Part shown: one piece after another, positions 1 to 21,621 of the stretch
How positions within the stretch are numbered: the first letter of the stretch is position 1
Layout of the letters: every line of letters begins with the position of its first letter
Translations under genes and position numbers: made by a program
Assembly (NCBI GenBank): GCA_963822845.1
Contig: CAWGIY010000003.1
Location: 100,840-164,839 of the forward strand
Direction: 5' to 3'
DNA length: 64,000 bases
Source: an uncultured Chloroflexia bacterium
Lineage (GTDB): Bacteria > Chloroflexota > Limnocylindria > QHBO01
Notes under the pieces: model-generated
Seen by the model: the letters and a program-made list of their open reading frames with translations, nothing else
What the model was told of the DNA's origin: nothing
The model's database searches: none

Positions 1-3000
1 CGCGCACTGCACCTCGATGCCATCGAGGGTGCAGAGGAAGGTGGCATCCGGATCGGTCGAGCTGAACTCGATCGACACCCGAGGTCGCGGTGCTGCCGGT
101 CGCCGGCGGTGCGGTCGCGAGATTGATGGCAACGTCGGGTGCGACATCGGTCCCGCTGACCCACTCGAACTCGGCCGGGGTCTGGTCGGGCGTGCCGAAC
201 TCGCCGACCGCGATGACCTGGAAGAGGTGCCCGTTGCTCGTCGTAGGGGATGTCGGCGTAGGTGGCCTCGCCGGCGACGCCGCCCGGGCACTCGCCGAAG
301 ATCGGCGTGTCGAGCGCGCACAGGAAGGTGGCGCCGGAGCCGGAGAAGGTGAAGGTCACGCTGGTCGCAGGTCGTCTCGAGGTCGAGGCCCATGTCGGGG
401 GTGACCGAGAGGAGCGTCGTCTCCGGCTCGGCCTCGACGCCGAACTCGTAGGCCGGCTCCGGCGCAGGAGTCAGGTCGTGGTTGCCCGGAAGGTCGAGCG
501 CGCGGACCTGGAAGGTGTACGCGCCGGGCGTCAGCTCCTCGAAGGCGATATCGTGGAAGAACGAGTCGCCCGCAGCCGGCTCGCCGCACTCTTCCCAGAC
601 CTCGGTGCTCGTCTCGGTCGTGTTCGTGAAGGCGCATTCGAACTCGAGCTCGAACGAGGAGCCCAGGTCGTCGATGCCGCGGAAGGTGAAGCGCAGGCCG
701 GGCTCGACGAACTGCTCGGGACCGATCTCGGCGGCGCCGAGGAAGACGGTCTCGGGCGGCGCGACGTCCTGCACGGTCCAGTGTAGGTGGCCGGTGACAG
801 GTCCTGGACCTGCTCGCCGTCGGCGTTGCGGTACTGGTTGACCGCGAAGACCTCGAACTCGTGCTCCTCGGGCTCTCCGCCCTCGCCCGGCAGGAACGGA
901 CCGGCCTGGAACGGCGAGGTGCAGCCGACGTGCGGCGACCCGTTGACCGAGCAGCGGAAGGTCGCGCCGGCCTGGTCGGAGCTGGAACTCGAAGGTCGCG
1001 GTGTACGCGCCGGTCGGGTCGTCGGGCCGGCGTCGATGATGGTCTCGGGCTCGCCGGTGGTGACCCACACGAACGGCTGCGGGGTCGTCGATGCCGGCCG
1101 GGAAGCCGCGGCTGGCACCGGCCGGCGTCGGGTCGACGTTCGGGATCTCGGCGATGTCGAGCGCGCGGACCCACAGCCAGTGCTGGCCGGAATCGAGGCC
1201 CTCGAGGAACCAGACGACCTCGCACTCCTCCCACGTCGTCGGCGCCGGCGGCGGCGTGCCCTCGCCGTACGAGCACTCGAAGGACTCGACGGGCTCGTTG
1301 CTGGCGAAGCCGAAGATGACGTCCGGGCCGGAGTTGGCCTGATCCGGGTAGACGGTGATGAACGTCTCGGGCGGCGTCGTGTCATCGGCCCCGATGATCA
1401 GCCACTCGTAGAAGGCAGGCGAGATGTCACGGTTGCCGTCGGGATCGACCGCGCGGACGTGGAAGACGTGCACGCCACCGCCAAGCGGACCGGCGATCTC
1501 GAACGGCGTCTCGCAGGCGGCGAACTCGCCATCGTCGAGGGCGCACTCGAACTCGTTGACGGGCAGGTCGTTCAGGAGCTCGAAGCCCTCGAACTCGAAC
1601 GTGGCGCTGGTCTCGGTCGTCTCCTCCTCCGGGCCGAGGATGATCTCGGTGTCGGGACCCGACATGTCGATGACGGTCCAGTGCGCGATCGCACCGACCG
1701 GATCGATGTTGTCCGGCTGCGTCGATCGCCTGGACGAGCAGGGTGTGCTCGCCCGGCGTCGTCGACCTCGATCTCCTCCATGAGCGGATCGCAGCCGCCG
1801 AGGTTCACGCCGTCGAGCGTGCACTCGAAGTCGAGCTCGAGGACCGGCGTCATGTCGTCGGCGCCGCTGAAGGTGAAGATGCTGATGAAGTTCGGCGTGA
1901 ACGAGCCCTCCGGCGGGCCGCCGGTGATCGATGGTCGTCGGCGGAGTGACGTCGGGGCCGATGATCTCCCACTCGTAGATCGCGGGCGTCAGGTCCATCC
2001 AGCCGAAGGCGTTGATGGCCTGGACGATGAACTCGTGGTCGCCTTCCTCGAGCGGGCCGACGGTGAGCGGTGACTCGCAGAAGAAGAACGGGTCACCGTC
2101 GATCGAGCACTGCGTGATCGCGTCGGGGGCCTGGTCGGTCCAGAACTCGAAGGTGGCCGAGCCGCTGGTCGAGGTCGGGAGGCCCTCGGGGCCGAGCGGG
2201 CCCTCGGGACCGGACAGGATCGAGGTCTCGGGCGCGGATCCGGTCGAGGCGATCGCGATCGCGAAGAGTCCGAAGTCCTCGGCGATGTTGCTGCAGATGC
2301 GCGCCGGCGTCACGAACGGGTTGTGGAGGGTCGTGACGTCGATCCACAGCTCGCCGTCGAAGTGGAGCAGGCGCAGGGTCTGGGCGCCCTCGAAGTCGGC
2401 CGGGTTGTAGCTGATGCAGATGTTGATCGGCTCCGAGTACTCGGCCGTCGTCGGGATGTCGTAGACGTGCGTGCTGGCTCCCGCGTAGCCCTCCGGCAGC
2501 GGCGGCCCGGCGAAGATCCGATCGGCGATCGTCGTGCCGGCAGTGTCGACGCTGAAGAAGCTGACGCTGACGTTGCCGATCGTCACGAGAACGGGCTCGC
2601 CAACTGGCGTGTTCGCCGCGCCGGCCGGCGCGATCGTCCAGGAATGGGTCGCCGGGCTCGGGTCGACGTTGCCCGACAGGTCGGTCGCGACCGCGGTGAA
2701 CGTGTAGTCGCCGGGGACGAGGTCGGTGAACTCGGTCACGACGCCGGGCTCGCACTCGCCGGATTCCGTGCCCGCCGGCCCGGTCAGCGTGCACTCGATC
2801 GTCGCGGTCGGGTCATCCGAGCTGACCTGGAGGTACGCGCTCGCGCTCAGCGTCGTGGCGGGCGGGCCGAAGTCGATGGTCGTTTCGGGGGCGGTGAAGT
2901 CCTGCACCGTCCACGTGTGCATCGCCGGGATCGGGTCGTGCTCGAACGGCAGGCCCATCCAGTCGAGGCCGGTGAACAGGGTCTGGACCTGGAAGATGTG

Positions 3001-5776
3001 CTCGCCCGGGAACAGGTTCGTGTAGGTCTTGCGATAGACGCCCGGCTCGCCGTCGACCGGCTCGGCGGTGCAGAGTCCGAACGGCCGATCGTCGAGCGAG
3101 CAGTAGAAGACCGCATCGGCGTCGAACGGCTCGCTGGTGAACTGGAACGTCGCCGTCGTGGTCGTGCCGCTCGCCGGCGCGGAGAGGATCTTGGCCTCCG
3201 GCGGCGTGACGACGAACTCCGACGTCCTCCCACTGACGCCGAGGTTGCCGAACTCGTCGACCGCGCGCACCGCGAAGAGGTGCTCGCCGATGCCGAGGTC
3301 CGTCGTAGGCTGACGGCCGAGGTGCACGGCGCGGCTCGTGCCGGGTCGCCCGGGGCGTGCCGGGTTGAACTTGCCGTCGAGCCAGCAGTGGAAGGTGACG
3401 CCGGTCGACGTCCGCGCTGAACGTGAAGGTGACGTCGCGGTCGGTCGTCTCCTCGACTGTCGACGCCCGGGCCGGACAGGATCGTGGCCACCGGCGGCGG
3501 CGAGACGATCCAGGTGAAGACGTCCGGCGTGGACTCGATGTTGCCGGCGGCGTCGATGGCGCGCAGGCGGAGCGTGTGCGTGCCGCGGGTCAGGTCGCAG
3601 AACATCTCGGGCGAGGTGCACGAGTTCCAGGCGGTGGTCGAGTCGAGCGCGCACTCGAAGCTCAGGTCCGCGCGCCGGCGTGCGGTTGTCGGTGCCGCTG
3701 AAGATGAACGTCGCCTCCTGGAGCAGCGTGCCGTTCTCCGGCCCGAGGTTGAACGTCGAGTTCGGCTCGGCGATGTCTGGACCGAGCTCGGACGAGCCAC
3801 TCGTAGACGGCCTCTTCGCCGACGATTCCCTGCGGGTTGGTCGCGCGGACGACGAACTCGTGCTCGCCGTTCTCGACGACCCAGCGCCGCACCCGGTCGC
3901 CGGGTCGCGTGACGTCGCCGCCGCACGGCAGGAAGTCGGCGCCGTCGAAGGAGCACTCGAACGTCGAGCCGGGCTGATCGGACGTGAAGGTGAAGACGGC
4001 GTTCTCGGTCTGGCTCGCGCCGTCAGGCTCACCGGAGACCGGATCGAGCCGGCCGTCAGGCCCGCTGAGGAACGTCACGACCGGGGCGGCGGCGACGTGT
4101 CACCTGCGCGCGTGGCCGGGGCGCCGATGTTGCCGGCCAGGTCGGTGGCGCGGATGGCGACGGTGTAGGCGCCCGGCTCGGGAACGCTGAGCTCGTAGCC
4201 GCCGCCGACCGGCGACTCGCACGACACCCACTCGGCCGAGCCGATGCCGGCCGCGGTGAGGAAGGCGGCGCACTCGAACTCGAGCAGGAGCGTCGGCGTG
4301 CGCGTTGTCGATGGCCGAAGAAGGTGTACGGCTCGGGCTCCTGCGCCAACCGTGGCGCCGTTGGCCGGTCCGCCGGAGATCGTCGCGACCGGGCCGCGCG
4401 TGTCGGCGAGCGGTGTCCAGGTGTGGGCGGCCGGCGTCGGATCGGGGTTGCCCTCGAACTCCGGCTGCGTCGGATCGGGGAACTCGGGCTCGAACATGTC
4501 GACCGCGCGCACGTAGAAGGTGTGCTCGCTGAGCGACATCTCCGGATCGGCGTACGAGTAGACGTCGAGCAGGTTGAACGGGCTGACGCACTCGACCCAC
4601 GCGTTCTCGTTCGGCGGCGCCGTGCCGTTGGTGACCTGGCACTCGAAGAGGAGCAGGAACTCTGGCGTCAGGTCGTCGAGGCCGACGAACTCGAAGATCG
4701 TCGAGGCCAGCGTGTTGACGGGTCGGTGACCGCACCGGACGGCGCGCGCTCGATCGTCGTGTCCGGCGGCGAGCTGTCGACCGGGTCGACGACCTCCCAC
4801 TCGTAGATCGGCAGGCTCGAGCTCGGCGGCCGAGCCCATCGTCTCGGACTCCGCGAAGACCTCGAGGATGTGGTCGCCCGGGAGCAGCGGCTCCGGGAAG
4901 TCCGTGTCGCCGGCGAAGGCGGGGCCGACCTGGAACGGCGACTCGCACGGGAAGTAGGCGCCCGGATCCAGGCTGTCGAAGCGGCACCAGAACGTGGCGT
5001 CGCCGACGTTGGCCTCGAAGATGATCTCCGCCGAGGTGCTCGCGCTCGGGCCGCCGGTCGCCGGGTCGCCCTGCGGGCCGCCGGTCGCGGGCGTGAAGCC
5101 GGGGCCGTCGGTGAAGACGACGGTGACGCCGAGGAGCTCCCACGTGAACGGTCGTCGGGGCTCCGACGTTGCCCTCGAAGTCGATCGCGCGCACGAAGAA
5201 GGTGTGCGGGCCGACCTCGGTCTCGGCGAGGCCCCACTCGAAGGCGCCCTGGTTCATGAACATGGCGGCCTCGAACCCGCACGGCTCGTAGCCGTTCGCG
5301 TCGACCTTGCACTGGAAGGTGACGTCGGGCTCGTTCGAGTGGAACGTGAAGATCGCGTCGAACAGCCAGGTCTGGATGCCGTCGTCGGCGGGATCGATGT
5401 CGTCCGGGATGACGTCGAGGATCGACCTCGGGGGCGACGCCGGACGGCAGCGGCACGTAGGTCCACGTGAAGGTCGCAGGCGTCGGATCGGCCAGGCCCT
5501 GGCCCATCATGTCGATGGCGCGGACCTCGAACGTGTGCTCGCCCGGGCTCAGGTTCAGGTACTCGGCCGGGTACTCGCAGTCCTCCCAGGCCAGCGGGTT
5601 GTCGTGTCGATGCGGCACTCGAAGACGATCTCGTGCGGCAGGGTGAAGTCGTCGGTGCCCCGGTAGGTGAAGCTGACGTTGCGGCTCGGGCTCTGGATGC
5701 CGGCGGTCGCCGGGTCCCAGTCGGCCGGTCCGGAGACGATCCCGGTCTCGGGCGCGCCGGGCACCGTGCCGAGCTC
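1..5776 (-). repeat. C-terminal array of ~18 copies of a ~100-aa FEC-motif Ig-like domain (>=25 copies in the whole gene)
   Basis: Repeated ..F.F......tFEC.lDg..w..C.SP..y..L..G.H.F.VRA.D..GN.D.TPA.y.W.v....PeT.I..gP. Examples: STFECSFDG ~3960, LSFECALDS ~3650, VTFHCWLDG ~3390, LDFECTLDG ~1820, NEFECALDD ~1545, LEFECAFTN ~640, ATFLCTLDG ~30. One different beta-sandwich-like insert lies at ~2230-2600. Confidence 0.7.
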
Positions 5777-6939
5777 GCAGACGACGCCGAAGCACTGCTC
5801 GGGCTCCATGTTGCCGGCGGCGAGGTTGCCGCCGCCGTCGATGGCGCCGACCGAGTAGATGCCCCAGCCGCCGTTCAGCTGGGCGACGTTGTCGCGGACG
5901 GTGTGGCCGGCGCCCTCGACGTAGATGCCGTCGCCGCCGTTCGCGTCGGTCGTGTTGTTCTCGATGAGCGTCCCGCTGTCGAGGACGGAGGACTCGGTGA
6001 CCTCGATGCCACCGCCGCCGTTGCCGCTGGCCGTGTTGTCGCGAACGATCGTGTCGTGCGAGAGCTCACCGATCTCGATGCCGGAGCCGAGCGTGCCGCT
6101 CGCGTTGTTGGCGACGATCGTCGTGCCGGTGGCCTCGCCGACCACGATGCCGCCCGCGCTGCCGCTGAAGTCGTTGCCCTTGACGAGGGTGTTCGTGGCG
6201 AGCTCGACGACGACGCCCGGGCCCGGTCGTGGCCGACGGCCGAGTTGTTGAGGACGGTGTTGTTGTTGCCGCCGACCATGACGCCGCCCTGGCCGCCCTC
6301 GATCGTGTTGCGCTGGACGAGGTTGTTGTTCGAGGGCAGCAGCTCCTCGCCGGCCACGATGCCGAAGCCGCCGTTGTCCTTGAGCACGTTGTCGGTGACG
6401 ACGTTGTTGCCGCCGCCGATCATGAAGATCCCGCCGCCGCCGCTCATCGAGATCTCGTTGTGCTCGATGAGGTTGTCGCTGGCGAACTCGAGGTAGATGC
6501 CGCCCTCGCCCTGGTTGGCGCCGAGGTCGTTGTTGCGGATCACGGCGTGGCGCGTGCCGGTGTAGAGGGCGATGCCGATCTCGTTGCCGACGATCGAGTT
6601 GTCGCGGATCAGGTTGCCGTCGGCGCCCTGGTCGGCGTCGGAGAGCGCGATGGCGGCCTCCTCGTTGGCCTCGAGCCGCATCGAGTGGACGACGTTGCGC
6701 GCGGTGCCCGGGTTGAGCTGGACGCCGTAGAGGAACTGGGTGACGAGGCCGTTCATGATCGTGACGTCGTCGTGCCCGTTGTTGAGGATGCCGGCGTCGA
6801 GGCCCATGCCGTCGACGACGTGGCCGTCGAGGTCGATCGTGATGCCGGGCGCGCCGACGATGAGGCCGTGGCCGCCGCAGTCGACCAGGTCGTTGAGCAG
6901 GCGGGTGCTCTCCATGAGGATCTGGCCGCAGTTCACCTG
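5777..6939 (-). repeat. NosD-like beta-helix module 3 (paralogous to modules 1-2)
   Basis: QVNCGQILMESTRLLNDLVDCGGHGLIVGAPGITIDLDGHVVDG ... AIDGGGNLAAGN...CFGVVC. Frameshift at ~6222. Confidence 0.7.
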
Positions 6940-7529
6940 CGCTGCGATCGGCGGCTCGCCGACCGTCCAGGCGTAGATCCTCGTGTCGAAGTTGCTCGCC
7001 GCGTCGTCGGCCCGGACCCAGAACTCGTACGTGCCGGGCTCGAGGTCGGTGTAGGTGATCGGCGAGGTGCAGGCTTCAGCAGCGTCCCAATCCACCGGCG
7101 TGGGCGGCACGGCCGGCTGGAGCACGCACTGGAAGGTCACACCGCCCAGCCAGTTCGCGGAGAACTCGAACGTCGCATCGGTTTCGACGGTGACCCGGTC
7201 GGGGGTCGCGTCGATGGAGGCCGCGAAGGTATCCGCATCACGCGCGACCGCCCAGGTGTAGGAGGCCGGGGTCTCGTCGGCGTTGCCGGAGAAGTCGACC
7301 GCGCGAACCTCGAAGGTGTACGTGTCGTTGGCGAGGTCGCTGTACGTCTTCGGGCTCGCGCACGCCGTCCACGGGCCGCCGTCGAAGCGGCACTCGAAGG
7401 TGACCGGGCTCGCGTTGTCGGCACCCGAGAACCGGAAGACGGCGACGCTCTCGGTGGTCTCGGCTGGATCGGGCCCTCGAGGATGTTCGTGTTCGGGCGC
7501 GATCGAGTCGCCGCCGCCCTGGCCGCCGA

Positions 7530-8803
7530 GGCAGGTGATGTTGTAGCACTGCTGCGGCTTGAGATCGACGCCGAGCGGGCCGAGGTTGCCCTGGGCGACG
7601 TTGCCGCCGCCGTCGATGTTGGCGCGCCCGTTCGACGGGTCGCCGACGTAGATGCCCCAGCTGTCGTTGTCGAAGGAGACGTTGTCCTTGAAGATGTGGC
7701 TCGGCTTCGTGGCCTTGATGCCCTCTTCCTTGTTCGAGTTCGTCGTGTTGCCCTGGACGAGGGTGCCCTGGCCGGCCGGCGTCTCGTCACCGATGTAGAT
7801 GCCGCCGCCGACGTTGTTGCTCGACAGGTTGTTCACGAGGACGTTGGCGAACGACTGCGACTCGAGGGTGATGCCGGTGCCGTCCGAGTTGCTGGTGTCG
7901 TTGCCCTCGATCGTGTTGCCGGTCGAGTTCTTCAGGCCGATGCCGCCCTTGTTGCCGCGGACGTCGTTGCCCTTGATGAGGTTGTCCATCCCGTAGAAGA
8001 GGTCGATGGCGTCGGAGTTCGTCAGCGTGCCGACGTTGTCGATCAGCTGGTTTCGGCGCGAGTGGACGATCTCGAGGGCCGGGCCGCTCGTCTCGGAGAT
8101 GTGGTTGCCCGCGACGACGTTGTCGGTCGACTCGATGCCAACGGTCGGTCCGCTCGTCGTGTCGCTGATCGACACGCCGGCGCCGACATCGGCGATCGGG
8201 TTGTTGCGCACGGTGTTGTCGATGGCGCCCTCGAGGAGCACGCCGGCGTCGCTGGCGACCTGGATGTCGTTGCTCTCGACGACGTTGGCGACGGCGCGGT
8301 CGATGAAGACCGCGTCACCGCTGGTGGCACCGATGAGGTTCCCGCGCACGATGTTGTCGCGGGACGCCGTTGAGGAGCCAGACGCCGCGCTTGTTGGAGA
8401 GGAGCGTGTTCGCGCGCAGGATGTTGTCGTTGACGCCGGACTGGAAGCCGGGCACCGGGTCGCTCGGCGCGAGGGTCGGATCCTCTGGGAAGGTCGGGTG
8501 GCCGAGGCTGATGCCGGCTTCCTGGTTGAGGTCGGCCGTGACGCCCTCGATGATGTTCAGCTTGGCGCCGTTGTTGAGCATGACGCCGTAGTCGAAGTCG
8601 GTGAGCCGGCCGTTCCGGATCGTGACCGAGTCGTAGCCGTTGTTCAGGATCGCGGCACCGATCGACTTGCCGTCGATCGTCTTGCCGTTCAGGTCGATCG
8701 TGATCGCGTCGGCGCCGATGATCAGGCCGTGGCCGAGGCAGTCGGCGAGGTTGTTGTTGACGATGATGCTCTGCGTGATCTTCTGGCCGCAGAAGACCGT
8801 CTT
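7530..8803 (-). repeat. NosD-like beta-helix module 2 (paralogous to module 1)
   Basis: KTVFCGQKITQSIIVNNNLADCLGHGLIIGADAITIDLNGKTIDG ... NIDGGGNVAQGN...CYNITC. Frameshift at ~8372. Confidence 0.7.
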
Positions 8804-9989
8804 CGTGACCGGCGTCGCGCCGACGGTCCACGTGTAGGCGGCGGGCACGCCGCTGTTCGCGGCATCGTCGACGTTGCCGCTCAGGTCCCGGCGCGGACCT
8901 GGAACACGTGCTCGCCCGGCGCGAGGCCGTTGACGGTGTGCGGCGATGTGCAGAGCGTCCAGATCGGCTGGCCCGAGCCGTCCACCGCGCCGTCGAGGCG
9001 GCACTCGTAGACCAGGTCGGCCGTCAGGCTCTGGTTGTCGGTTCCGGTGAAGCTGAAGGACGCACTCGTCTGCACCGTCACCGGGTCCGGACCCGCCGGG
9101 ATCTCCGTGTCGGGCGCCGTCGTGTCGGGCGGCGGGGGATGGATCCACCACGCGTGCCACGCGGCCGTGACGTCCGTGTTGCCACCGCGGTCGATCGAGC
9201 GCACCTCGAAGATGTGGCCGCCGTACTCCAGGTTGGTGTACTGCGTCGGCGACGCGCACGGCTCCCATGCCGGCTGCACCGTGAGGGCGCTCACGTCTGC
9301 CTGCGTGAGCTCGTCGTTGAGCTCCTCGTAGTAGTGCCGGCACTCGTACGCCAGGTTGTATCCGGCCGTCAGGTTGTCGCTGCCGGTGAACTTGAACGTC
9401 GCGTTCCGGTTCGTCGTGTCGTAGCGCGTGCCGGCCTCATCGGTCAGGAGCTCGCCGGGGGCCGCGGTGATGCGGGTGTCCGGCGCGAATGCCGCGACGG
9501 TGCAGTCGTTGACGCCAGGCGTCTCACCGAATGCGCACTCCTCGCTGCCGTCCTCCTCGACGCCGGCCTCGATCGTCCACTCGTACACGATCGGGGTCAG
9601 GTCGAAGTTGCCGGCCTGGTCGACCGCGCGCACCTCGAACTTGTGGGTCATCGAGCGACTCGAGCATCAGGTAGGTGAGCGGGCTCGAGCACTCGACCCA
9701 GAACTCACCCTCCGGCGGCTCAGGCAGGTCCGGCGGCTCGCCCGGGTCGGGCGGCTCGAGCTCCGGCTCCTCCGGAGGCACGATGGGATCCGGCGGCGCG
9801 TCGAGGCGGCACTCGAACACGAGCGCGGTCGGGACGTCGCCGGTCGGGCCGTCGTTGCCGGTGAACTCGAAGACGCGCGGCCGCTGTTGGTGGACGCGTC
9901 CGGGCCAGGATTCGGGCCGAGCGGGCCGTCGATGAGGATCGTCTCGGGGGCGGTGAGGTCCTCTGGCGTCATCGGCAGGTCGTCGCCCT

Positions 9990-11311
9990 CGGCGCAGACC
10001 ACTCCCACGCACTGGATGGCGTCCGGCAGGCCCACGGCGACGCCGACGTCCGCGTGGTTGCCGCTCGCGCGGTTGCCGCCGCCGTCGATGTTGCGGTTCG
10101 GGTCGAGCGGCTCGCCGGGCACCGGGTCCTCGCCGGCGTCGATGCCGTAGTTGGCGTTGTTGTTCGCGTTGTTGCCGATGCGGACGCCGTCGGGGCAGTT
10201 GACCGGGCCGCCGACGGTGTGCCGGCCGGTGGCGATCGAGATGCCGCTCTCGGCATTCTCGTTGGCGATGTTGCCGGCGACCAGCGCGCCGCCGACGGCG
10301 TTCCCCAGCGAGTCGAACGTTGCGCCCTCGATCGAGATGCCCGGGCCGCCGTTGCGGTTCGCGAGGTTGCTGGTGACGACCATGTTGACGCCGTCGCCGA
10401 GCTCGATGCCGGCCTGGAGCGAGTTCGAGACGTCGTTGTTGTCGACGACGAGGTTGTTGACCCCGGAGGCGTCGACGCCCGACGGGTTGTAGCCGAGCTC
10501 GCTGTTCTTGACGACGCTGTTGCTCGAGTTCGAGAGCACGACGCCGCCGTCGGACTGCTGGTGGGCGAGGACGCCGTCGACCGCGATCCGGTCGGAGTCC
10601 TGCACGATCACGCCCGCGTCGCCGTTCCGGACGAGCACGCCGCCGCGCACGACGTTGCCGTGCGAGCCCTGGTGGATGACGATCCCGGCGTCGCCGGTGT
10701 CGCTGACGTCGTTGTTCTCGAGGACGTTCTCGCGCGAGCCGTTCTCGACCACGATGCCGGCGTCGGAGTCGAGGGTCGGGTCGAGGATGATCCCGCTGAT
10801 CGTGTTGTTGCGGATCATGTTGCGGTGCGAGTCGAACAGGTGGATCGACATCCCGTTGCGAGATGAAGAAGTTGTTCTCGATGACGCTGCCCTCGGTGCC
10901 GCTCATCAGCTGGATGCCGGTCTCGCCGTTCGAGTCGAACACGCTGTCGTGCACCGTGTTGCCGAGGCGACCGTTGTCGGCGTCGAACAGCTGGAGGCCG
11001 GTGAGCGCGTTGCGGGTGAGGGTCATGTGGTGCACCTCGCTGTGCACCGATCCCGGCCCGAGCAGGATGCCGTAGCCGTAGTTCGTGACCGTGCCGTTGC
11101 GGATCTCGACGTTCGGGTAGCCGCTGCGGATGCCCGGCGTGAGGTTGTCCTCCTCGCCCGGCTCGAGGATGAAGCCGCTCGAGACCGTGTGGCCGTTGAG
11201 GTCGAGGATGATGTTCGGCGCGCCGATCGCGATGCCCTCGCCCAGGCAGCCGAGGACGTCTTCGGCGAGCTTCGTGCTCTCGGTGATGACCTGGCCGCAG
11301 GTGACGACCTC
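9990..11311 (-). repeat. NosD-like right-handed beta-helix module 1 of the giant gene
   Basis: Starts VTCGQVITESTKLAEDVLGCLGEGIAIGAPNIILDLNGHTVSS. Followed by ~20-residue N..I..N/G repeats. Ends NIDGGGNRASGN...CVGVVC. Frameshift at ~10860. Confidence 0.7.
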
Positions 11312-11362
11312 TGCCTGCGCCGGCACGGGCTGGCGCGCGCCCGGCGGCGGCGTATCGGCCGC

Positions 11363-11920
11363 CTCGAAGCGCAGCTCGAGCACGGGGAGCGTGATCTCGG
11401 GTGGATCCTGTGGCAGCTCACGTGACGAGAAGCTCTGGTCGCCGCCTTCGGGGTCGCTCTCGACCTGGTCGCGGATGACCCAGCCGTGGTTCGGGAGGGT
11501 TCCGGCGAGGATCGCCTCGACGTCGGCGGTCACGTCGAAGTCGCGGTAGCCCTCGCCGGCGGCCGTCGGAACCGGGGCGGTGCCAGCGGCGGCAGGGGGC
11601 TGGCTGACCCAGGTGAGGGTGCTTTCCTTCCAGGTCTGGAGGAGCGGGACGGCGACGAGGTTGCGGCCCTCGGTGTGACCGTCGGAGTAGAGGCGCAGCG
11701 TCGCGGAGATCAGCTCGCAGTCGGGGGCGTCGGCGATGAGCGGGAAGCGGAAGAAGGCGCGGGCGTTCTGCTTCTCGACCGGCCCGGTATCGGGGACGTT
11801 CGCGCCGGAGCGGACGTCGAGCTCGGTCTCGAACATGTAGTTCTCGAGCGGGTTGACCTGGTCGGCCCAGCCGTCGGCGTTCGGGGTGAGGGTGATGTTC
11901 GCCTCGTCGCAGTTGAGCGG
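11363..11920 (-). other. DNRLRE-like domain inside the giant gene
   Basis: ADGWADQVNPLENY...ARAFFRFPL..APDCELISATLRLYS....NLVAVPLLQTWKESTLTWVSQP...DFDVTADV....LPNHGWVIRD....SFSSRE....P.LELRF matches the remembered DNRLRE family pattern. Confidence 0.6.
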
Positions 11921-12631
11921 CGTGCTGCCCGGGTCGTCGGGATTCGGGCCGACGCGCCAGGTGTAGCGGGCCGGCGTCGGATCTGGGCCGCCCACCTCGG
12001 TGCCGATGGCGCGGACCTCGAAGGTGTGGAGGCCGGTCGTCAGGTCGGAGTACATGACCGGGTTGAAGCACTCGAGCCACTGCTCCGGATCGCGGCTGTC
12101 GAGACGGCACTCGTACTCGGCGAACTGCGACGGGGTGAAGTCGCTCACCGCGCGGAAGCTGAAGAGCGCGGAGCGGCTGTTCGTCTGCGGCGTCGTCGTC
12201 GGTGCCGGCGGCACGACCGTGCCGGGCGTCAGGCCAGGGGCCTCGACGATCTCGGTGTCGGGCGGCGTCATGCCGACGCCACTGATCAGCTGCTCGATCG
12301 GCGTCTCGTCGACGTTGTCGGCGCGGTCGATCGCGCGGACCTCGAAGGTGAAGAGGCCCTCCTCGGGTAGCGGCACCGACCACGGGCTCGAGCAGCCGTT
12401 CCACATCAGCTCGGGCGGCTGCGGCTCCCACGGCGGGACGATCTCGGGCTCCTCGGTCAGCTCGATCTCGATGAAGCGGCACTCGAAGTTGAGCTCGTTG
12501 GGCGGCGTCGTGTTGTCCGTCCCGCGGAAGCGGAAGGCCATCGTCTCGATGCTGTCCTGGACCGGGCCGTCCTCCGGGTAGTCGAAGATCGTCTCCGGCG
12601 GGTTGTCGTCGAACGGCGGGGGCGGGCCGAC

Positions 12632-15151
12632 GAACTCGTACGCGCCGGCGTCGCATCGGTTCAGGTGCTCCTGCTCGTCGTCGGTGTAATTGGCCGCGGG
12701 GCGGGGAACGCCGCGCTGGTCGGTGACCGAGCAGGGCTTGGCGCTGGAGTCGATCGCCAGGCTGCCGTACTGGAGGGCGTGGGTCAGGGTCGGGCCGCCG
12801 TTGTCGGCGATGGCCAGCAGCTTCGGGTCGCCGCGGCGATCGCGGACGCCGAGCTCGATCGGGTTCTGCGCCGTCTCGGCGGTGACCGCGAGGAAGCAGG
12901 TGTTGACGCCGCCGGTCTCGAGGTTGCCGCCCTCCGAGCGGATGTACCAGTCGCAGTTGCCGCCCTTGATGCTGCCGCCGACGATCGAGTTCTTGAGGAT
13001 GACCGCGGCGTTCGTCTTCGGCGGGATCTCGGGAACGAAGTCGGACTCCACCACGCCGATGCCGCCGCCGATCGGTGCCGAGTTGCGCCAGATCGTGGTG
13101 TGCACGATCCGGAGCTCGCCGTCGGCGTCGTGGAAGAGACCACCACCACCGGCCGCCGCCATGTTTCCGGAGATCGTCGTGTTCTCGATGAGCGAGTCGC
13201 CGTCGGCGAAGCTCATGATGCCGCCGCCGTGGCCGGCTTCCTCGGGGAGCTCGCCGTCCTCGCCTGGCGTCCCATCCGCGCGGTGTTGTTCAGGAACAGC
13301 GAGCCGCGGATGATGAGCTGGTTGTCGGGCGCGTTGGCGAGGCCGCCGCCGATCTCGGCGGTGTTGCCGCGGATCGTCGAGTCGAGCAGGAAGAACTCGC
13401 CGCTCGAGGTGTTGTAGATGCCGCCGCCGGCCGAGGCCGCGCGGTTGGTGGTGACGGTCACCCGCTCGAACGTGACCTCGGTGGCGCTGTTCTCCAGGCC
13501 GCCGCCGTCGAATGCGCGGTTGTTCGAGATCGTCGTGTCGGCGATCACGACGTCACCCGCGTTGTTGAGGCTCAGGCCGCCGCCTTCCTCGGTCGCCTCG
13601 TTGCCGTCGATCGTCGAGCGCACGATCGTCAGCGGTCCGCCGTCGGACTGGACGCCGCCGCCGCCCGCGACGTCGTCGCTCAGCGTGCCGTCCTCCTCGA
13701 CGATCGGGACGCCGGCCCTGTTGAAGCTGAACGTCGAGTCGACGATCGTCTGCAGGCGCTCGCTGTGCAGCCAGACGCCTCCGCCCTCGCCGTTCGAGGC
13801 GTTCGCGGTGACGGTAACGGAGCTCAGGAGCAGGCTCGCGCGCCCACTGCTGGCGATGGCCGCGCCGTGATCGGACGAGTGGTTCTCGCGCGAACGTGCT
13901 GTCGGCGACGACCATGTGGGCGTCGCCGTCGTTGTAGAGGCCACCACCGTTTTCGGCGATGTTGTCGGTGACCTGGACGTTCTGGACGGTGAAGGCGCCC
14001 CGCAGGCCGAACTGCGAGACGTGGCCGCCGCTGTACAGGCCGCCGCCGTTGGCCGCCTGGTTCTTCGTGACGCTGCCACCGGTGACGGTGACGGTGCCGC
14101 CCTCGGCGTAGAGGCCGCCGCCGCTGGCGCCCGATCGGTTCTGGGTGAGGTTGACGTTCGTCAGCTCGACGATGCTGTCGCCCTCGCTGAGGATGCCGGC
14201 GCCGTTGCCCTCGCTGGCGTTCAGCGAGATCGTGGAGTTGCTGATCCGCAGCGTCCCGACCTTCTCCCAGCGAGCCTGGTTCGCGATGGCGCTGGCGTCG
14301 AGCGGGTAGTCGGCCGGGTCGACGAGGAGGAACTCCTCGGGGTCGAGCGGGTCCGGCATGATCGCGCCCGGGTTCAGGGTGACCGTGCTGCCGGTGATCG
14401 TGATCGTGCCGCCCGAGACGTTGTTGATGGCGGCACCACTGCCGCCGCCGGAGCCGTTGCCGGTGAAGGTCGAGTTGAGGATCTCGACCCGCCCGAGGGG
14501 GAGCAGGTCGAGGTTCGGCGGATCGGTCGCCCACTCGTAGTCGTGAAGGTCGGCGTGGTTGAGGCCACCGCCGGCCTTCTCTGCGTAGTTGTCGCGGACG
14601 ACCACGCCATCGAGCGTGAGCTTGCCGAGCGACCAGTTCTGGATCGCGCCGCCCTCCTCGGGGCTGAAGCCGTTCTGGAGGGTGAGGTTGCGGAATGTGA
14701 CGTCGCCGGCACCGGGGTGGATCTCGAAGAGGCGGTCGATGCCGCGTGCGACGATCGGCGAGCTCGGCAGGGGATTGCCGCCGTCGATGATGACGTCGTC
14801 GAGTGGCCAGCTCCCGACTGCCTTCTCGATCGTCACCGGGTCGAGGATCTCGAAGTCGCCGACGTTGGCCGCGTTCTCGTTGATCGGCGGGATTGCGAGC
14901 TGATAGAGGCCCGGGTTGATGGCGATCGTGTCTGGCCCAGGATGCGCGTTGGCCTCCTGGATGGCGGCGCGCAGGGTGCACTGGCTCCCGGTCGTGCTGG
15001 TGTCGACGTCGCAGATCCCATTGCCAACGACCGCGTCGACCTGGTCACGCGTGTCGTTGACGGTGAAGTCCGACGCGGCGGCGAACGAGAGGATGAGCAC
15101 CATGACCGATGAGGTCGCGACGAGGGCAGCAGCCGGGACACGAACACGCCG
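12632..15151 (-). other. N-terminal module of the giant gene: signal/TM segment, CSLREA-type motif, PMP-like beta-helix repeats, choice-of-anchor-Q-like end
   Basis: Hydrophobic RRVRVPAAALVATSSVMVLILSFAAA. GSQCTLRAAIQEANAHPGPDTIAINPG resembles the CSLREA motif. Repeated GGAI/GGGLY..F.GN units. Ends in ADNGGPTLTHAL..GS.AID....DQRGVPRP....CDAGAYEF. Confidence 0.65.
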
Positions 15152-15519
15152 CGGCGTCCGGCCCCAGGCCTGGCCAAGCGGCCGGCCGGCGACGGCGAGC
15201 GCGCGCCGAGCCCGCAGGCGGGACGCGGTCAGCAGCCGATCCACGGGTCGGGCCACCGGCTCGAGGAGTCCGGCGACCGGATCGAGGAGGAAGCGACCGA
15301 CGCCACGACGGAGCGATGCGTCGGCCGAAACGACGGCCAGGTGGACCGGAGCGACCGCCTTCCCCACGGCGGTGGTCACCGGCGTCGCGACGACCGCGAG
15401 GGTTGCGGCGGTGCGGCTGGCGCCGACGCGAATCGCGGTCCCAGCCTGACGCGCGGCGCCCCCGGCAACTCGGCCGAGGGCGGGAATCGTGACTGCGGAC
15501 TGGAGGAGCCGCGGCAGCG

Positions 15520-15779
15520 GCGGCGATGCCGTCTTGCGGCGATGCCGTCCTGCGCGCCATTGTCCGACAGGTCGCACTGCAGTAGCGATGTCCCGCACCA
15601 CGAGGCATGAACACCACCCCGCAGGCGTCACGGATACAGGTTCGGCTCGTCAGGTCTGCGCGCTGCGCGGCTCGATACGCGCGCCGCTGGCAGGCCCTCG
15701 AGCAGAAGCGCTGATGTGATCGGCTGGGCTCGAATGCCGAGCCGCATCCGTCGCGCGCACATGTGTTGGCGACCGCCAT
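15520..15779 (-). CDS. Duplicated zinc-ribbon (C..C...RFCS..C) small protein or N-terminal domain; no in-frame stop until 15045
   Basis: MAVANTCARDGCGSAFEPSRSHQRFCSRACQRRAYRAAQRADLTSRTCIRDACGVVFMPRGAGHRYCSATCR. Third-position GC is higher than in the overlapping frame. The frame then runs into out-of-frame translation of the giant gene's 5' region. The 3' boundary given is only where sensible sequence ends. Confidence 0.45.
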
Positions 15780-15930
15780 GCCGGCGGCGTCGTGCGCGGG
15801 TCGAGGGGTCCACGGATTCGCACCTGCTCGCGCCAGCGTCTGACGGAGCCGGCGTCCGGCCGTGGGCAGTGACGAGTCTCGGAGTACAGATATGAGCACA
15901 GATGCACGATCACGCTGCCGAATCAGGATT

Positions 15931-15981
15931 CGGTAAGGACGCGATCAGTCGGCGGTAAGGGTTTGGTGAGAACGTCCTTAC
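15931..15981. promoter_or_regulatory. CGGTAAGG direct repeat (22-bp spacing) plus an inverted copy, upstream of the zinc-ribbon/giant gene
   Basis: CGGTAAGG at 15931-15938 and 15953-15960. GTAAGGACG at 15933-15941 is inverted as CGTCCTTAC at 15973-15981. Lies in the 130-nt spacer between the response-regulator stop and the zinc-ribbon ORF. Confidence 0.3.
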
Positions 15982-16030
15982 AAACGAGGTCCCGGCCGGT
16001 GCGCGGGTGCACCATCCGCGCGGTGGGGCC

Positions 16031-16690
16031 TTAGCGCTTCGGCAGCCGATACCCCGCGCCGCGCACGGTCTCGATGACGTCGGCGCCAAGCTTCCGGCGC
16101 AGTGCGTTGACGTAGACGTTGACGAGGTTCGAGGTGGGGTCGAAGAAGTAGCCCCAGACCTGCGAGAGCAGCTGTTCCCGGCTGAGGACCTGGTCCGGAT
16201 GTCGGAGGAGCGTCTCGAGGAGGCTGAATTCGCGGGCGGTCAGGTCGACGACACGGTCGTCGATCGTCACGCGACGCGTCCGAAGGTCCAGGTGCACCTG
16301 GCCGACGGTGAGCGCAGACGATTCCCGTGAGCCGCGATCGCGCAGCCGCGTCCGGACCCGGGCCAGGAGCTCCTCGAAGCGGAAGGGCTTGCGCATGTAG
16401 TCGTCTGCGCCGGCATCGAGGCAGGTAACGACGTCGCGCTCGGGGCGGCCGGTGAGGATGAGGATCGGCATCTGCTTGCCGCGCGCGCGGAGCGACTTCA
16501 GGACCTGGAGGCCGTCGCGCTCCGGGAGCCCCATGTCAAGGATGATCAGGTCGAATTCGTCGGTCATCCCGTACTGCTCGGCCTCCTCGCCGTCGCTGGC
16601 GACGAGGGTCGAGAAGCCGCTGGCCCGCAGGCCCTTGTCGATGAACGAGCTGATGAGGGCGTCGTCCTCGGCGATCAGGATGCGCGTCAT
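16031..16690 (-). CDS. OmpR/PhoB-family response regulator
   Basis: 219 aa. Receiver domain (ILIAEDD...DLIILDMGLP...K) plus winged-helix C-terminus (LTAREFSLLETLL....V.SREQLL..VWG......NLVNVYVNALRRKL....IETVRGAGYRL). Confidence 0.9.
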   Translation of the reverse strand: MTRILIAEDDALISSFIDKGLRASGFSTLVASDGEEAEQYGMTDEFDLIILDMGLPERDGLQVLKSLRARGKQMPILILTGRPERDVVTCLDAGADDYMRKPFRFEELLARVRTRLRDRGSRESSALTVGQVHLDLRTRRVTIDDRVVDLTAREFSLLETLLRHPDQVLSREQLLSQVWGYFFDPTSNLVNVYVNALRRKLGADVIETVRGAGYRLPKR

Positions 16691-18285
16691 GCCGAGCCAC
16701 CGCCCGTGCCGTCGGGGATGACCATCGTGAAGGTCGAGCCCTCGCCGAGCTTGCTCGTCAGCCCGATGGAGCCGCCGTGGGCCTCGGCGATGGTGCGCAC
16801 GATCGCCAGGCCCAGCCCGCTGCCGCGGTAGCGCCGGTGGGCGCTGCGCCCGCGACGGAACCGGTCGAAGACGCGGGCCTGCTCCGCGTCCGGGATGCCG
16901 AAGCCCGTGTCACGAACCCACAGCCGGAACTCACCATCGGCAACCGATGAGCCGATGGCGATCGTGTCGTGCCCGACGGTGTGCTGCACGGCGTTGTGGA
17001 CGAGGTTCATGACCGCCTCGGTCAGGCGGTGGCGGTCGACGAGCACCTCGGCGTCGGCGGCCGCGTCGACCACCCACGTCCGGGACGCCATGGCCGCGGC
17101 CTTGGCCAGGAGCTCGTTGGTGAACGGCTCCAGGTCGATCCAGGTGGGACGCAGGAAGTCGTGCTGCTGGGCATCCGCCAACAGCTGGAGGTCGTCGACG
17201 ATGCGGCCCATGCGCTCGAGCTCATCGGCGACCAGCGCGATCGTCGCGTCGCGCTCCTCGGGCTCCTCGCTGAGCAATTCGAGGTGGCCGCCGACGATGG
17301 TCAGCGGGTCGCGCAGCTCATGGCTGGCGTCGTGGACGAACTCGCGCTGGCTGCGCATCACCGCCTCGAGCCGGTCGAGCATCGCGTTGAAGCTGCGAGC
17401 CATCTCGGACGCCTCGTCGCCGCCGCTGGCGCTGATGCGCCGGGTCAGATCGGACTGAGAGATCGAGCGCGCCGTATCGGTCAGCTCCTGCACCGGCCGC
17501 AGGACCCGACCGGCCAGGAAGTAGGCCGCGATCGAGCTGATGAGGAGAACGCCGAGCCCCGCCAAGAGGCCATAGGTCTGGAGGTCCTCGATGACGACCA
17601 GCTCGCTGGCCGGCAGGATGGCCACGACGAACGAGCCGACCTCGTCGCCGAGCCGGACGCGCGCGGCATGGTAGTGGACGTCGCCGATCTCGGTGCTGTA
17701 GCTGGCGGTGACCAGGCGGCTGATGCCGCCGCTGGGCTCGCTCAGGCTCTCCCACTCGGCCAGGCGCTCGGCCGGGAACTCCTCCAGCGGGAACTGCTCG
17801 ACATCGCGATCGACCGGCCGGCCCTCGACAAAGGTCAGCAACGCCTCCCCGTTGCCGGGCACGTTGCGGAAGAGGAAGACCTCGAAGACGCGCTCGAGGC
17901 TGTCGAAGCGCTGGCCCGTCTGCGGGTCGTTGCCTTCGGTCACGAGCAGGTCGACCTCGGTGATCTCCTGTTCCAGGTCCTCCTGGATGCGATCGTTGAG
18001 GCTGATCAGCAGCACCTCGCGGAGAGCGACGAGGCCGATGATGACGGATAGAGCGAGAAGGACAACGTAGGAAGCCAGGATCCTCGTCCGCGTGCTGCGC
18101 GCAGCCCCGAACCATCGGGGAGAGGCGCGTCCTCGCACCTGCCCCGGAAGTGGCGTTCCCGCGGCGTCGGGAATGTCCTGGATCGGGGCCTCGTCTACCC
18201 TGGCGGACAACCCATCACCCCCGCTCGCGCGGCATGAAGCGGCAGCCGCTCCATCGGTCCGGAGAGCGCTCCGGCGACGTGGCAC
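16687..18285 (-). CDS. Sensor histidine kinase (two TM segments, HAMP, HisKA, HATPase)
   Basis: H-box FVHDASHELRDPLT, N-box LVHNAVQH, G-boxes DTGFGIP and GSGLGLAIV. 4-nt overlap with the response-regulator start. An alternative GTG start at 18138 is possible. Confidence 0.88.
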   Translation of the reverse strand: MPRRRSALRTDGAAAASCRASGGDGLSARVDEAPIQDIPDAAGTPLPGQVRGRASPRWFGAARSTRTRILASYVVLLALSVIIGLVALREVLLISLNDRIQEDLEQEITEVDLLVTEGNDPQTGQRFDSLERVFEVFLFRNVPGNGEALLTFVEGRPVDRDVEQFPLEEFPAERLAEWESLSEPSGGISRLVTASYSTEIGDVHYHAARVRLGDEVGSFVVAILPASELVVIEDLQTYGLLAGLGVLLISSIAAYFLAGRVLRPVQELTDTARSISQSDLTRRISASGGDEASEMARSFNAMLDRLEAVMRSQREFVHDASHELRDPLTIVGGHLELLSEEPEERDATIALVADELERMGRIVDDLQLLADAQQHDFLRPTWIDLEPFTNELLAKAAAMASRTWVVDAAADAEVLVDRHRLTEAVMNLVHNAVQHTVGHDTIAIGSSVADGEFRLWVRDTGFGIPDAEQARVFDRFRRGRSAHRRYRGSGLGLAIVRTIAEAHGGSIGLTSKLGEGSTFTMVIPDGTGGGSA

Positions 18286-18503
18286 TGCGAATGGGCACGG
18301 ACGGTGGCACAGAGATCGATGAGTGAACCTGCCGCGCGCCGGCAGCTGCGCTCCTCTCCTCTGTCTCGGGTCAGAGGATTCATGGGACGATCGGGTGGGA
18401 AGTCCCTAGCCTTTATGGTGCAGCGTTTATGGACCGGCGCAGGACGCTCGTCAATAGTACTCAGCCCGGATGGTGCGAGGACGCACCACGGGACGATCGC
18501 GTT

Positions 18504-18533
18504 TTGACCGGTCGTCGGAGGCGACGGTATCAT
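18504..18533 (+). promoter_or_regulatory. Candidate promoter of tRNA-Asn (TTGACC-N18-TATCAT)
   Basis: TTGACC at 18504-18509 and TATCAT at 18528-18533, 46 nt upstream of the tRNA 5' end. Confidence 0.45.
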
Positions 18534-18578
18534 CGCCCGGCCGACCGCCGTCATGCCTGATGGTCGGTTCGCGCGCGT

Positions 18579-18651
18579 TCCGGCGTAGCTCAGTTGGTAG
18601 AGCGGGTGACTGTTAATCACTTGGTCGCAGGTTCGAGTCCTGCCGCCGGAG
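18579..18651 (+). tRNA. tRNA-Asn (GTT)
   Basis: Cloverleaf read by eye: acceptor TCCGGCG/CGCCGGA, anticodon loop CTGTTAA, T-loop GGTTCGAGTCC, CCA encoded at 18652-18654. Confidence 0.9.
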
Positions 18652-18726
18652 CCACCTCACCGCGATGAGGGCACCCGCCCGCCCGGGGGTTGCGATCTGA
18701 CGGGACGACGAAGCAACGGGTCGCCG

Positions 18727-20787: not shown

Positions 20788-20815
20788 CGCCGATGCATCG
20801 GTCCCGGTGGACGGC

Positions 20816-21247: not shown

Positions 21248-21313
21248 GTGCGGCTTTCCCTTTTGTCAACGCAGGGCTAACGCTATGGCCCATCTTCCGT
21301 TAGTACCTTTGTG

Positions 21314-21363
21314 CCGGACACTGCGTTGGCGGCTCACGCCGCCAGGGCAGCCGCAGTGTCCGG
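21314..21363 (-). terminator. Long nested stem-loop downstream of the 21393 gene
   Basis: CCGGACACTGCG (21314-21325) pairs with CGCAGTGTCCGG (21352-21363). Inner hairpin TGGCGGC-TCAC-GCCGCCA. No U-tract. Confidence 0.4.
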
Positions 21364-21392
21364 CTCTTCCGTGCCCCGGGGTCCTCGGACGC

Positions 21393-21602: not shown

Positions 21603-21621
21603 GGACCGATGATACCCATGC

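Follow-up and report, generated by a model that had tools for sequence, protein, structure and literature searches.

At least 36 frame changes in a giant surface-protein gene of a Chloroflexota contig: a probable local artefact of long-read metagenome consensus

The window considered here, a stretch of 64,000 nucleotides, carries on its minus strand, from ~15779 to nt 1, a giant gene, longer than 5,200 codons, whose reading frame changes at least 36 times, corresponding to 2.3 changes per kb. We conclude that these changes are most likely a local artefact of a long-read metagenome consensus, because the lesions consist of small indels only with no nonsense codon, because neither an extra substitution load nor relaxed constraint accompanies them and because the same insertion-biased, mostly non-homopolymer spectrum recurs in the same gene of a Nanopore-only MAG. 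The underlying gene would most likely be a single intact one of more than 15.8 kb, and its product is most likely a single giant protein of the cell surface, belonging to a type that is common to soil Actinomycetota and Chloroflexota.

Number, distribution and nature of the frame changes

Stop maps and GC3 phase both establish that the minus-strand coding phase switches many times along the stretch from 15.3 kb to nt 1. The Viterbi path of a codon model switches frame 33 times within the gene body and a 7-state model with both strands included returns the identical 33, matching the roughly 33 that a sequence-only reading of the DNA had reported between 15.1 kb and nt 1. The total of at least 36 is obtained by adding a hidden compensated pair at ~3351-3297 and a change at ~15500-15550, for which orthologues were compared. 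As many as 35 of 37 events fall within 15.2 of 63.6 kb (binomial p = 7e-20), and the frameshift rate in the giant gene is at least 55-fold that of the 48 kb beside it on the contig. Shift density climbs toward nt 1, from 1.05 to 4.4 per kb, and is highest over 1..5600. That the rest of the window is nearly intact, as had been proposed, is correct: the remaining 48 kb contain one confirmed frameshift, in a GT4 gene at ~60226 where the Pfam Glyco_transf_4 profile is divided between one ORF (positions 1-55) and its successor (positions 63-169), and one doubtful case. A candidate frameshift at ~51433 was rejected since complete FtsW and MurG genes overlap there, and a phase switch at ~19930 is the junction where strains differ. 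The stop map also verifies that a minus-strand frame stays open for 1,358 codons from 4074 to 1, a frame noted earlier as missing from the ORF list; ORFs running off the window edge go unlisted, which accounts for its absence, and it is the true coding frame over only ~70% of its length.

All of the lesions are small frame-shifting indels, ~20 single-base insertions, ~7 single-base deletions and 2 two-base insertions, so that insertions outnumber deletions by ~3 to 1. No in-frame stop codon occurs across the 5,265 codons of the stitched frame, no large deletion is seen relative to orthologues and none of more than 2 nt is attributable to decay. Comparison of the junctions with orthologues bears out the earlier remark that shifts of both signs occur and that some lie outside C or G runs; ~14-15 of the 19 localised insertions are not homopolymer extensions, against the expectation that errors fall in homopolymers. 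Homopolymers as the cause of the local concentration were rejected, since runs are rarer inside the giant gene than outside it (the longest in the gene is 5 nt), and no simple-sequence or long homopolymer tracts are present at the shift sites, which lie mostly in non-repetitive sequence. Collapse of internal repeats was rejected as well, the DNA repeats within the gene being merely 60-75% identical. Compensation of the shifts beyond chance is not indicated by an informal count of our own, with 19 sign runs versus ~16 expected, a difference that is not significant.

The individual junctions, all on the minus strand and placed by orthologue comparison unless indicated, are given here from the 5' end of the gene. 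The first, at 15500..15550, separates a zinc-ribbon-like part from the rest of the gene, the two forming a single continuous frame in the closest relative, L008. It is followed by an extra A or G outside homopolymers at 13885..13886 (+1, a 1-nt excess relative to all four orthologues), a base missing after GGG at 13270 (-1), a G or C added in TCGCAAC at 10858..10859 (+1), a change at 9860..9880 that reads as -1 versus L003 and L004 and as +2 versus L008 (Viterbi and orthologues), a G or C added in TCGCTCG at 9655..9656 (+1) and, by our own reading of the sequence alongside the orthologues, a -1 shift at 8885..8892 inside GCCGGGACC, where the orthologues have a whole codon. Just downstream of the last of these there is an in-frame length difference of ~14 aa that is separate from the shift. 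An extra T in GGCG-T-CCCGC (+1) lies at 8364, and a +1 shift in GCGCCCGAAC at 7494..7498, possibly in a CCC run, is compensated after 11 codons by a -1 shift at 7458..7460 (segment identity and orthologues). A compensating pair had been suspected near 7476-7500, and the 7496/7464 pair indeed restores PNTNILEGPIQ, 100% identical to L008. A +2 change at 6220..6228 (Viterbi and orthologues) and a -1 change at 5603..5605 come next.

Closer to the window edge there are +1 shifts at 5422 (GTCG-A-TCC, or G before ATC), 5149..5151 (ACC-G-TTC) and 4809..4811 (GCC-G-ATC) and a -1 shift at 4716..4718. Three +1-type shifts (4343, ~4315 and 4300-4301; Viterbi and orthologues) lie within the 54 nt of 4293..4346, in accord with the observation that all three frames are used in 4291-4350. 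A +2 change at 4090..4100 (Viterbi and orthologues) precedes +1 shifts at 3793..3794 (CTC-G-TCC), 3672..3673 (GCG-C-GCG), 3457 (GACA-G-TCGAG) and 3403..3407. The hidden compensated pair, missed by Viterbi, spans 3297..3351, where the orthologous HAPGDP...PC lies in a different frame over ~15 codons. Further +1 shifts are located at 1929 (ATC-G-ATC), 1761 (GA-C-GACG), 1713..1716 and 1077..1078, followed by a -1 shift after CCC at 1023..1026 and a +1 shift at 982 (CA-G-CTCC). Four more changes within 60..790 (~780, 362, 238 and 72) are placed by the codon model and domain motifs only; the first corresponds to the extra base called earlier at 781, a position beyond the end of the orthologue DNA fetched.

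Protein architecture, orthologues and constraint

The giant gene (1..15779, 3' end beyond the window at nt 1) was reconstructed by Viterbi stitching and orthologue alignment. Judged from its sequence, the product would be a membrane-anchored extracellular giant protein, with a zinc-ribbon-like part, a transmembrane anchor, PMP-/NosD-type beta-helix modules, a CBM96/DNRLRE domain and an Ig-like array with a cysteine pair. The zinc-ribbon-like N-terminal part (15560..15779), comprising two CxxC...C..C units, is continuous with the giant protein in a single open frame of L008; in a tblastn search with the L008 N-terminus residues 41-146 align with window positions 15836-15501 and residues 123-330 with 15550-14924 in another frame. 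A hydrophobic signal or anchor segment (VRVPAAALVATSSVMVLILSFAAAS) at approximately 15070..15145 in the stitched translation is conserved in L008. Four beta-helix modules follow with E-values of 1e-11 to 1e-22, above Pfam cut-offs. The first (13264..13887) is a right-handed beta-helix with Chlam_PMP repeats (Beta_helix 4e-11, Chlam_PMP 1e-7, NosD 2.5e-7), the second (9874..11143) matches Beta_helix at 2.7e-22 and NosD at 5.9e-15, the third (7498..8887) matches Beta_helix at 4.6e-21 and NosD at 3.7e-20 over 8358-7498, with 8887-8360 assigned from the translation, and the fourth (5603..6822) matches NosD at 1.2e-19 and Beta_helix at 1.7e-18 and 1.8e-14. Between the first and the second is a CBM96 (DNRLRE) carbohydrate-binding-like domain at 11389..11896 (PF24517, 1.4e-16, 61 bits versus a cut-off of 26), the match covering residues 457-625 of segment 13264-10862. 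In the stitched translation the remainder, 1..5600, is taken up by 17 or more Ig-like domains in a row, each ~95 aa long and bearing a conserved Cys pair and the motif P-x-T-x-I-x-x-G-P ... F-E-C-x-L-D ... C-x-S-P ... V-R-A-x-D-x-x-G-N, for which Pfam gives weak Y_Y_Y and He_PIG matches below curated cut-offs.

Directly upstream on the same strand, within 1 kb of the start of the giant gene, are an OmpR-type response regulator (16031..16690) and a HAMP/HisKA histidine kinase (16687..18285), both intact by Pfam. Their pairing with the giant gene is kept in relatives, as found by tblastn for L002, L003, L005, L007 and L008.

The stitched protein is collinear with that of L008, at 80.8% identity over 4,916 aa, and with those of L003, L004 and L005, at 70.7-76.1% identity. 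Uninterrupted open frames extend over 4,935 codons in L003, 4,832 in L004, 4,779 in L005, 4,884 in L007 and 5,019 in L008, in each case running off the fetched DNA, with no internal frame switch in any of the five. Isolates are among them, L003 being Jiangella aurantiaca (a SPAdes-style assembly) and L004 Nocardioides gansuensis. Stitched segments between 15535 and 783 match the intact orthologues at 62-100% identity with the exception of one ambiguous 8-codon segment, and the frame assignments made earlier hold up, the orthologues following the corrected frames as single ORFs. No copy with more than 81% identity to the window protein was found in protein, genome and metagenome searches, and JGI metagenomes scanned with a 329-aa unique segment yielded no relative. 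An origin from a plasmid was rejected, a plasmid collection giving only distant matches to housekeeping genes.

The affected sequence is without excess substitutions or relaxed constraint. In a relative-rate test with L003 as outgroup the window lineage has 202 unique amino-acid changes versus 381 for L008, and the window/L008 ratio of such changes is equal in the sparse-shift and dense-shift halves of the gene. Similarly, dN/dS versus L008 amounts to 0.353 in the part with sparse shifts and 0.355 in the part where their density is ~4 times higher. Nucleotide identity between the window and L008 is 85.1% in the gene and 86-88% in the flanks. A same-species contig, with 98.66% nucleotide identity, is without the block of kinase, regulator and giant gene at this position, so that strains of the species, 1.3% apart, differ in gene content at exactly this border.

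Origin of the frame changes

Two possibilities had been left standing by the sequence-only reading, a decaying gene or a poor or collapsed consensus. It is the poor consensus that we favour; decay would require an indel-only mutational process, and a collapse of internal repeats is at odds with their low identity to one another. We infer that the source assembly is a Nanopore-only one of metaFlye plus Medaka, of the Microflora Danica type. The proteins of the window are recorded on a 191,354-bp contig present in both NCBI and ENA, a source pattern like that of the Microflora Danica assemblies. The closest relatives, L008 and L012, are contig_NNNN records of ENA ERZ2503xxxx / MFD MAGs, and the Microflora Danica project assembled Nanopore reads alone, by Flye in meta mode with one Medaka round (PMC12313526). 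A Gaiellaceae MAG of the same project, L009, carries the same gene with at least 48 frame switches, 3.6 per kb versus 0.78 per kb in its flank, and as in the window the spectrum is insertion-biased and non-homopolymer with no in-frame stops. Split response-regulator genes are found in L001 and L002, further assemblies of the same kind. It is documented that Nanopore consensus sequences suffer frameshifts driven by indels (PMC9262707), and the fragmentation of gene calls by consensus indels, as measured by the IDEEL test, resembles what is seen in the window, with small indels, no accompanying substitutions and intact orthologues (PMC9262707). The spectrum of L009 offers the same likeness.

If the consensus is at fault, the frame changes would be small insertion and deletion errors, concentrated in this gene since the consensus is locally poor. 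The concentration might stem from a lower read depth, a mixture of strains or reads that belong to related copies of this widely shared gene, and a tapering of depth toward the contig end is also possible, as shift density rises toward nt 1. Several observations weigh against an artefact. The local excess of at least 55-fold has no explanation in the sequence itself, given the rarer homopolymers and the diverged internal repeats, and the response regulator and kinase, both intact, are found less than 1 kb from the start of the gene. Classic Nanopore errors, moreover, fall in homopolymers, genome-wide, and worsen at low coverage, in contrast to the mostly non-homopolymer insertions of the window and their restriction to one gene (PMC9262707).

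One mechanism within the artefact explanation, which we entertain as a serious though tentative candidate, is that the consensus mixes two or more diverged copies (strains, paralogues or orthologues of other soil taxa), with sites variable between the copies having come out as surplus or missing bases. Almost every single-base insertion is readable as a juxtaposition of two alleles of one site, C/G pairs account for 12 of 19 and mostly occupy third codon positions, and both alleles are found among orthologues at 9-10 of the 19 sites, but the allele test is a weak one in that any inserted base unlike its neighbour reads as an allele pair. The differences between strains of the species, both in sequence and in gene content at this very border, are consistent with such mixing, and soil is likely to supply related reads, the family being common to Actinomycetota and Chloroflexota at 70-81% aa identity. 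Against it, the nucleotide identity to L008 is similar in the gene and in its flanks.

That the gene is instead a genuine, very recently inactivated pseudogene, with ~36 real small indels in this Limnocylindria-like Chloroflexota lineage, is in our judgement unlikely. The confinement of the damage to one gene among intact contig neighbours is not what uniform sequencing error would predict, both + and - shifts are present with many outside homopolymers, and the locus is accessory, its loss tolerated, because the same-species contig does without it. Yet 36 frameshifts have accumulated without one nonsense codon in ~5,200 codons. Bacterial pseudogenes have a deletion bias, and base substitutions in them outnumber indels roughly tenfold. 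Here insertions predominate and no longer deletion is attributable to decay, and neither mixed lesions with a deletion bias nor accelerated or neutral substitution on the branch are found. In unique amino-acid changes the window lineage stays below the intact L008, its dN/dS is indifferent to shift density and the same pattern is present in L009, another Nanopore-only MAG. Were the indels real, a giant, horizontally shared gene would have been destroyed very recently by a process confined to it and yielding almost exclusively single-base insertions outside homopolymers, with the heavily shifted copy of L009 as a second independent case, a scenario that we rate as a shade more improbable still. 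Functional frame changes, in the form of programmed ribosomal frameshifts, phase-variable contingency tracts or a string of separate genes, can be dismissed almost outright: some shifts do compensate within 11-20 codons (7496/7464, 1085/1023) and an uninterrupted frame of 1,358 codons exists, but none of the shifts is present in the orthologues, which read through in a single frame, no repeat tract marks the sites, past the 13887 shift the old frame stops at 13553-13555 (ORF 13553..15631), the order of + and - signs is consistent with chance on the same informal count, and domains are divided across junctions.

Consequences for annotation and comparison with known systems

From the record as it stands, annotation would turn a gene longer than 5,200 codons into ~20 separate fragments or call it a pseudogene. 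A local consensus artefact, our preferred explanation, makes the case mainly useful as a caution: errors in a long-read MAG consensus can pile up in one gene to at least 55-fold above its neighbours, a second MAG (L009) repeats this accumulation in the same gene family, and genome-wide quality scores would not reveal errors concentrated in a single locus. If the shifts are real, they would point to an unusual indel-only mutational process confined to one locus.

Pseudogenised large adhesin genes of host-restricted pathogens are like the window gene in that a very long, frameshifted surface-protein gene sits beside intact neighbours. In such pathogen genes the lesions are usually single or few and of various kinds (nonsense, frameshift, deletion, IS insertion), whereas the window gene has ~36, without exception small indels, and shows no relaxed constraint.

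The nearest counterparts of the window protein are giant beta-helix surface proteins of soil Actinomycetota, with which it is collinear at 70-81% identity over ~4,700-4,900 aa and with which it shares the Pfam Beta_helix/NosD, Chlam_PMP and CBM96 matches and the upstream response regulator gene. Sources name the family 'choice-of-anchor Q', 'CSLREA domain', 'DNRLRE domain' or 'right-handed parallel beta-helix repeat-containing', and going by these names no member has a tested function. The window copy differs from the Actinomycetota family in its host, a Limnocylindria-like member of the Chloroflexota, and, like L008 and unlike that family, it appears to add the N-terminal zinc-ribbon part.

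Frame changes in the giant gene and its surroundings

With a G+C content of ∼70% in the window the third-codon-position G+C signal marks the coding frame sharply, and on the minus strand from ∼15.3 kb to nt 1 this GC3 phase hops repeatedly through all three frames, with stop maps showing stop-free stretches that continue in several minus-strand frames over the same interval. A Viterbi path based on codon usage, with shifts of 1-2 nt permitted, places 33 frame changes in the body of the giant gene, and a 7-state model (six frames plus non-coding) gives the identical 33 same-strand switches between 1 and 15.6 kb, in agreement with the number claimed from the sequence-only reading, whose examples at 7496/7464, 4293-4346 and ∼780 were all recovered. 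Orthologue comparison reveals in addition a compensated pair at ∼3351-3297 that was overlooked by the codon model and a change at ∼15500-15550 that divides an N-terminal zinc-ribbon-like part from the remainder of the gene, so that at least 36 frame-disrupting events lie between ∼15779 and 1. Joined across the frame changes, the translation yields a stitched protein of >5,000 aa without a stop. Shifts are unevenly spread, with 1.05 per kb between 15.2 and 5.65 kb vs 4.4 per kb over the remaining stretch down to nt 1 (p = 6e-5); the rise toward nt 1 would fit a tapering of read support near a contig end. The open frame 4074..1 does extend over 1,358 codons, as had been noted; the ORF lists omit it solely because it crosses the window edge, and the true coding frame coincides with it over only ∼70% of its length.

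In the other 48 kb, where one or two frameshifts had been suspected, the 7-state model proposes three substantial candidates. The GT4 glycosyltransferase gene (60019-61210, plus strand) is indeed split by a real frameshift at ∼60226, the two overlapping ORFs matching Pfam Glyco_transf_4 at positions 1-55 and 63-169, and this is the sole confirmed case outside the giant gene. The candidate at ∼19930 is a junction where gene content varies between strains, and that at ∼51433 was rejected because the complete FtsW and MurG genes overlap there by 95 nt. Overall, 35 of 37 events fall within 15.2 of 63.6 kb (p = 7e-20). FtsW, MurG and FtsZ form a cell-division cluster (50242-58705) that, together with parB and parA (22659-24510), is accompanied by sucCD, sdhA and acyl-CoA carboxylase / methylmalonyl-CoA mutase genes, a core chromosomal setting that excludes a plasmid.

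Orthologues and protein family

Scanning one genome per species, we found seven close loci at 50-81% identity. In five of these the gene is one open frame, with no internal frame switch, that continues past the fetched DNA: L003, from a Jiangella aurantiaca isolate (SPAdes-style NODE contig, coverage 58; 4,935 codons open), L004, from a Nocardioides gansuensis isolate (4,832 codons), L005, from a Gaiellaceae MAG with a k141-named contig (4,779 codons), and L007 and L008, both from Microflora Danica (MFD) MAGs (4,884 and 5,019 codons). The stitched protein is collinear with that of L008, the closest relative (80.8% over 4,916 aa), and also with those of L003 (74.7%), L004 (76.1%) and L005 (70.7%), and its segments from 15535 to 783 are all backed at 62-100% identity except for one 8-codon piece. 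Segment support and collinearity thus establish that the orthologues match the corrected frames and not those recorded, bearing out the earlier frame assignments.

The homologues are giant proteins of soil MAGs, named in their sources as 'choice-of-anchor Q', 'CSLREA', 'DNRLRE domain' or 'right-handed parallel beta-helix repeat' proteins. Pfam searches of the in-frame segments return four Beta_helix/NosD modules, Chlam_PMP repeats and one CBM96 domain, whereas the numerous ∼95-aa domains with a conserved Cys pair match only weakly (Y_Y_Y, He_PIG). In the stitched translation the N-terminal part is followed by a hydrophobic anchor, and a membrane-anchored extracellular giant protein is predicted from sequence. 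The gene belongs, as a new member, to a family of giant surface proteins with beta-helix and CBM96 domains that is known but uncharacterised. The genes directly upstream, both intact, encode a response regulator of OmpR type and a HAMP/HisKA kinase, a pairing found again beside the orthologues.

In L008 (8045-8800; compare window 15560-15899) the zinc-ribbon-like part has two units (C..C...C..C), precedes the membrane anchor and shares one open frame with the giant protein; the actinobacterial orthologues begin with a plain signal peptide instead. The giant gene, usually beside regulator and kinase, is common to two phyla (window 1-18285; L003, L004, L005, L007, L008), namely Limnocylindria-like Chloroflexota (the window, L008) and Actinomycetota (the two isolates and Gaiellaceae MAGs). 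Database matches of the window's methylmalonyl-CoA mutase indicate Chloroflexota and, within these, Candidatus Limnocylindria. Cross-phylum identity of the giant protein, 70-76% over ∼4,700-4,900 aa, equals or exceeds that of the adjacent regulator (64-70%), and these values suggest that a cassette of >15 kb may have spread horizontally.

Lesion spectrum and its interpretation

Lesions were typed by comparing the spacing between anchors on either side of each frame change with that in four orthologues, to find nucleotides in surplus or deficit, and then searching for the one-base change with which the orthologous reading is best recovered. The giant gene contains ∼20 single-base insertions, ∼7 single-base deletions and 2 two-base insertions. 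What looked like a deficit of 43 nt at ∼8887 proved to be a deletion of 1 nt alongside a separate in-frame difference in length. Homopolymer extension does not account for most insertions, non-homopolymer cases on the minus strand including those at 1929 (ATC-G-ATC), 3457 (GACA-G-TCG), 5422 (GTCG-A-TCC) and 8364 (GGCG-T-CCC).

Either genuine decay or a locally poor or collapsed consensus had been proposed. Bacterial mutation spectra favour deletions, and substitutions exceed indels roughly tenfold. Against natural decay, the stitched gene has 36 frameshifts vs zero nonsense codons, and relative to the orthologues insertions are in excess and no larger deletions were seen. In a relative-rate test with L003 as outgroup the window has 202 unique amino-acid changes vs 381 in the intact L008, with a similar outcome for outgroups L004 and L005 and an equal ratio in both gene halves. 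Nor does dN/dS relative to L008 change where shifts are denser, being 0.353 in the sparse-shift half and 0.355 in the half with ∼4-fold denser shifts. The process that made the indels therefore produced essentially nothing else. We consider it probable that the frameshifts are a local consensus artefact, and a gene riddled with frameshifts most likely does not exist as a biological feature; of the two proposals it is poor consensus that the data support. A genuine pseudogene, which would have to arise by an indel-only process, is unlikely, and functional frameshifting or a set of separate genes can be set aside as highly improbable.

Local concentration of probable errors and long-read data

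The closest relatives are contig_NNNN records from ENA ERZ2503xxxx assemblies and MFD MAGs. In the MFD project Nanopore reads alone were assembled with Flye (meta mode) and given one round of Medaka polishing (PMC12313526), and Nanopore consensus sequences are known to retain indels that break up gene calls (PMC9262707); we infer that the window derives from the same kind of data. In L009, an MFD Gaiellaceae MAG, the homologous gene (9000-22306) switches frame at least 48 times (3.6 per kb vs 0.78 in the flank), with an insertion-biased spectrum (38 events of +1 vs 25 of -1), non-homopolymer contexts and no in-frame stop. Data whose technical origin is known thus show the window's pattern as well, and the family may be a recurrent consensus-error hotspot in long-read MAGs.

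Homopolymers are excluded as the cause of the local concentration, since runs are fewer in the gene than in the rest of the window and the longest is 5 nt, as are internal repeats, which are only 60-75% identical at the DNA level. Because the family is common to phyla at 70-81% amino-acid identity, related reads may well occur in soil samples. Nearly all inserted bases can be read as a second allele beside the first at a variable site, a test that is non-discriminating. A same-species relative contig (ERZ25039494:contig_21700), 98.66% identical across window 19862-30257, is without the kinase, regulator and giant-gene block left of 19862, and strains of the window's species therefore differ in content exactly at this border; L008, at 86% nucleotide identity, carries the block at the same place.

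At the junction itself (19862-19869, within 18478-19907) contig_21700 carries different genes on the left. The membrane-protein gene at 18727-∼19869, only 82% identical to its contig_21700 counterpart and entirely missing from L008, is without its last ∼7 codons and stop, so that the ORF runs to 20208 over the start of the PNPOx gene. The junction is either a strain-variable recombination/deletion point or an assembly join. A further between-strain indel is the 441-bp stretch at 30257-30699, missing from the 98%-identical contig_21700. Even small response-regulator genes are broken into receiver and DNA-binding ORFs in L001 (7239-8616) and L002 (1656-2089), both from the ENA ERZ2503xxxx assemblies, which shows the general indel-error background of that data set.
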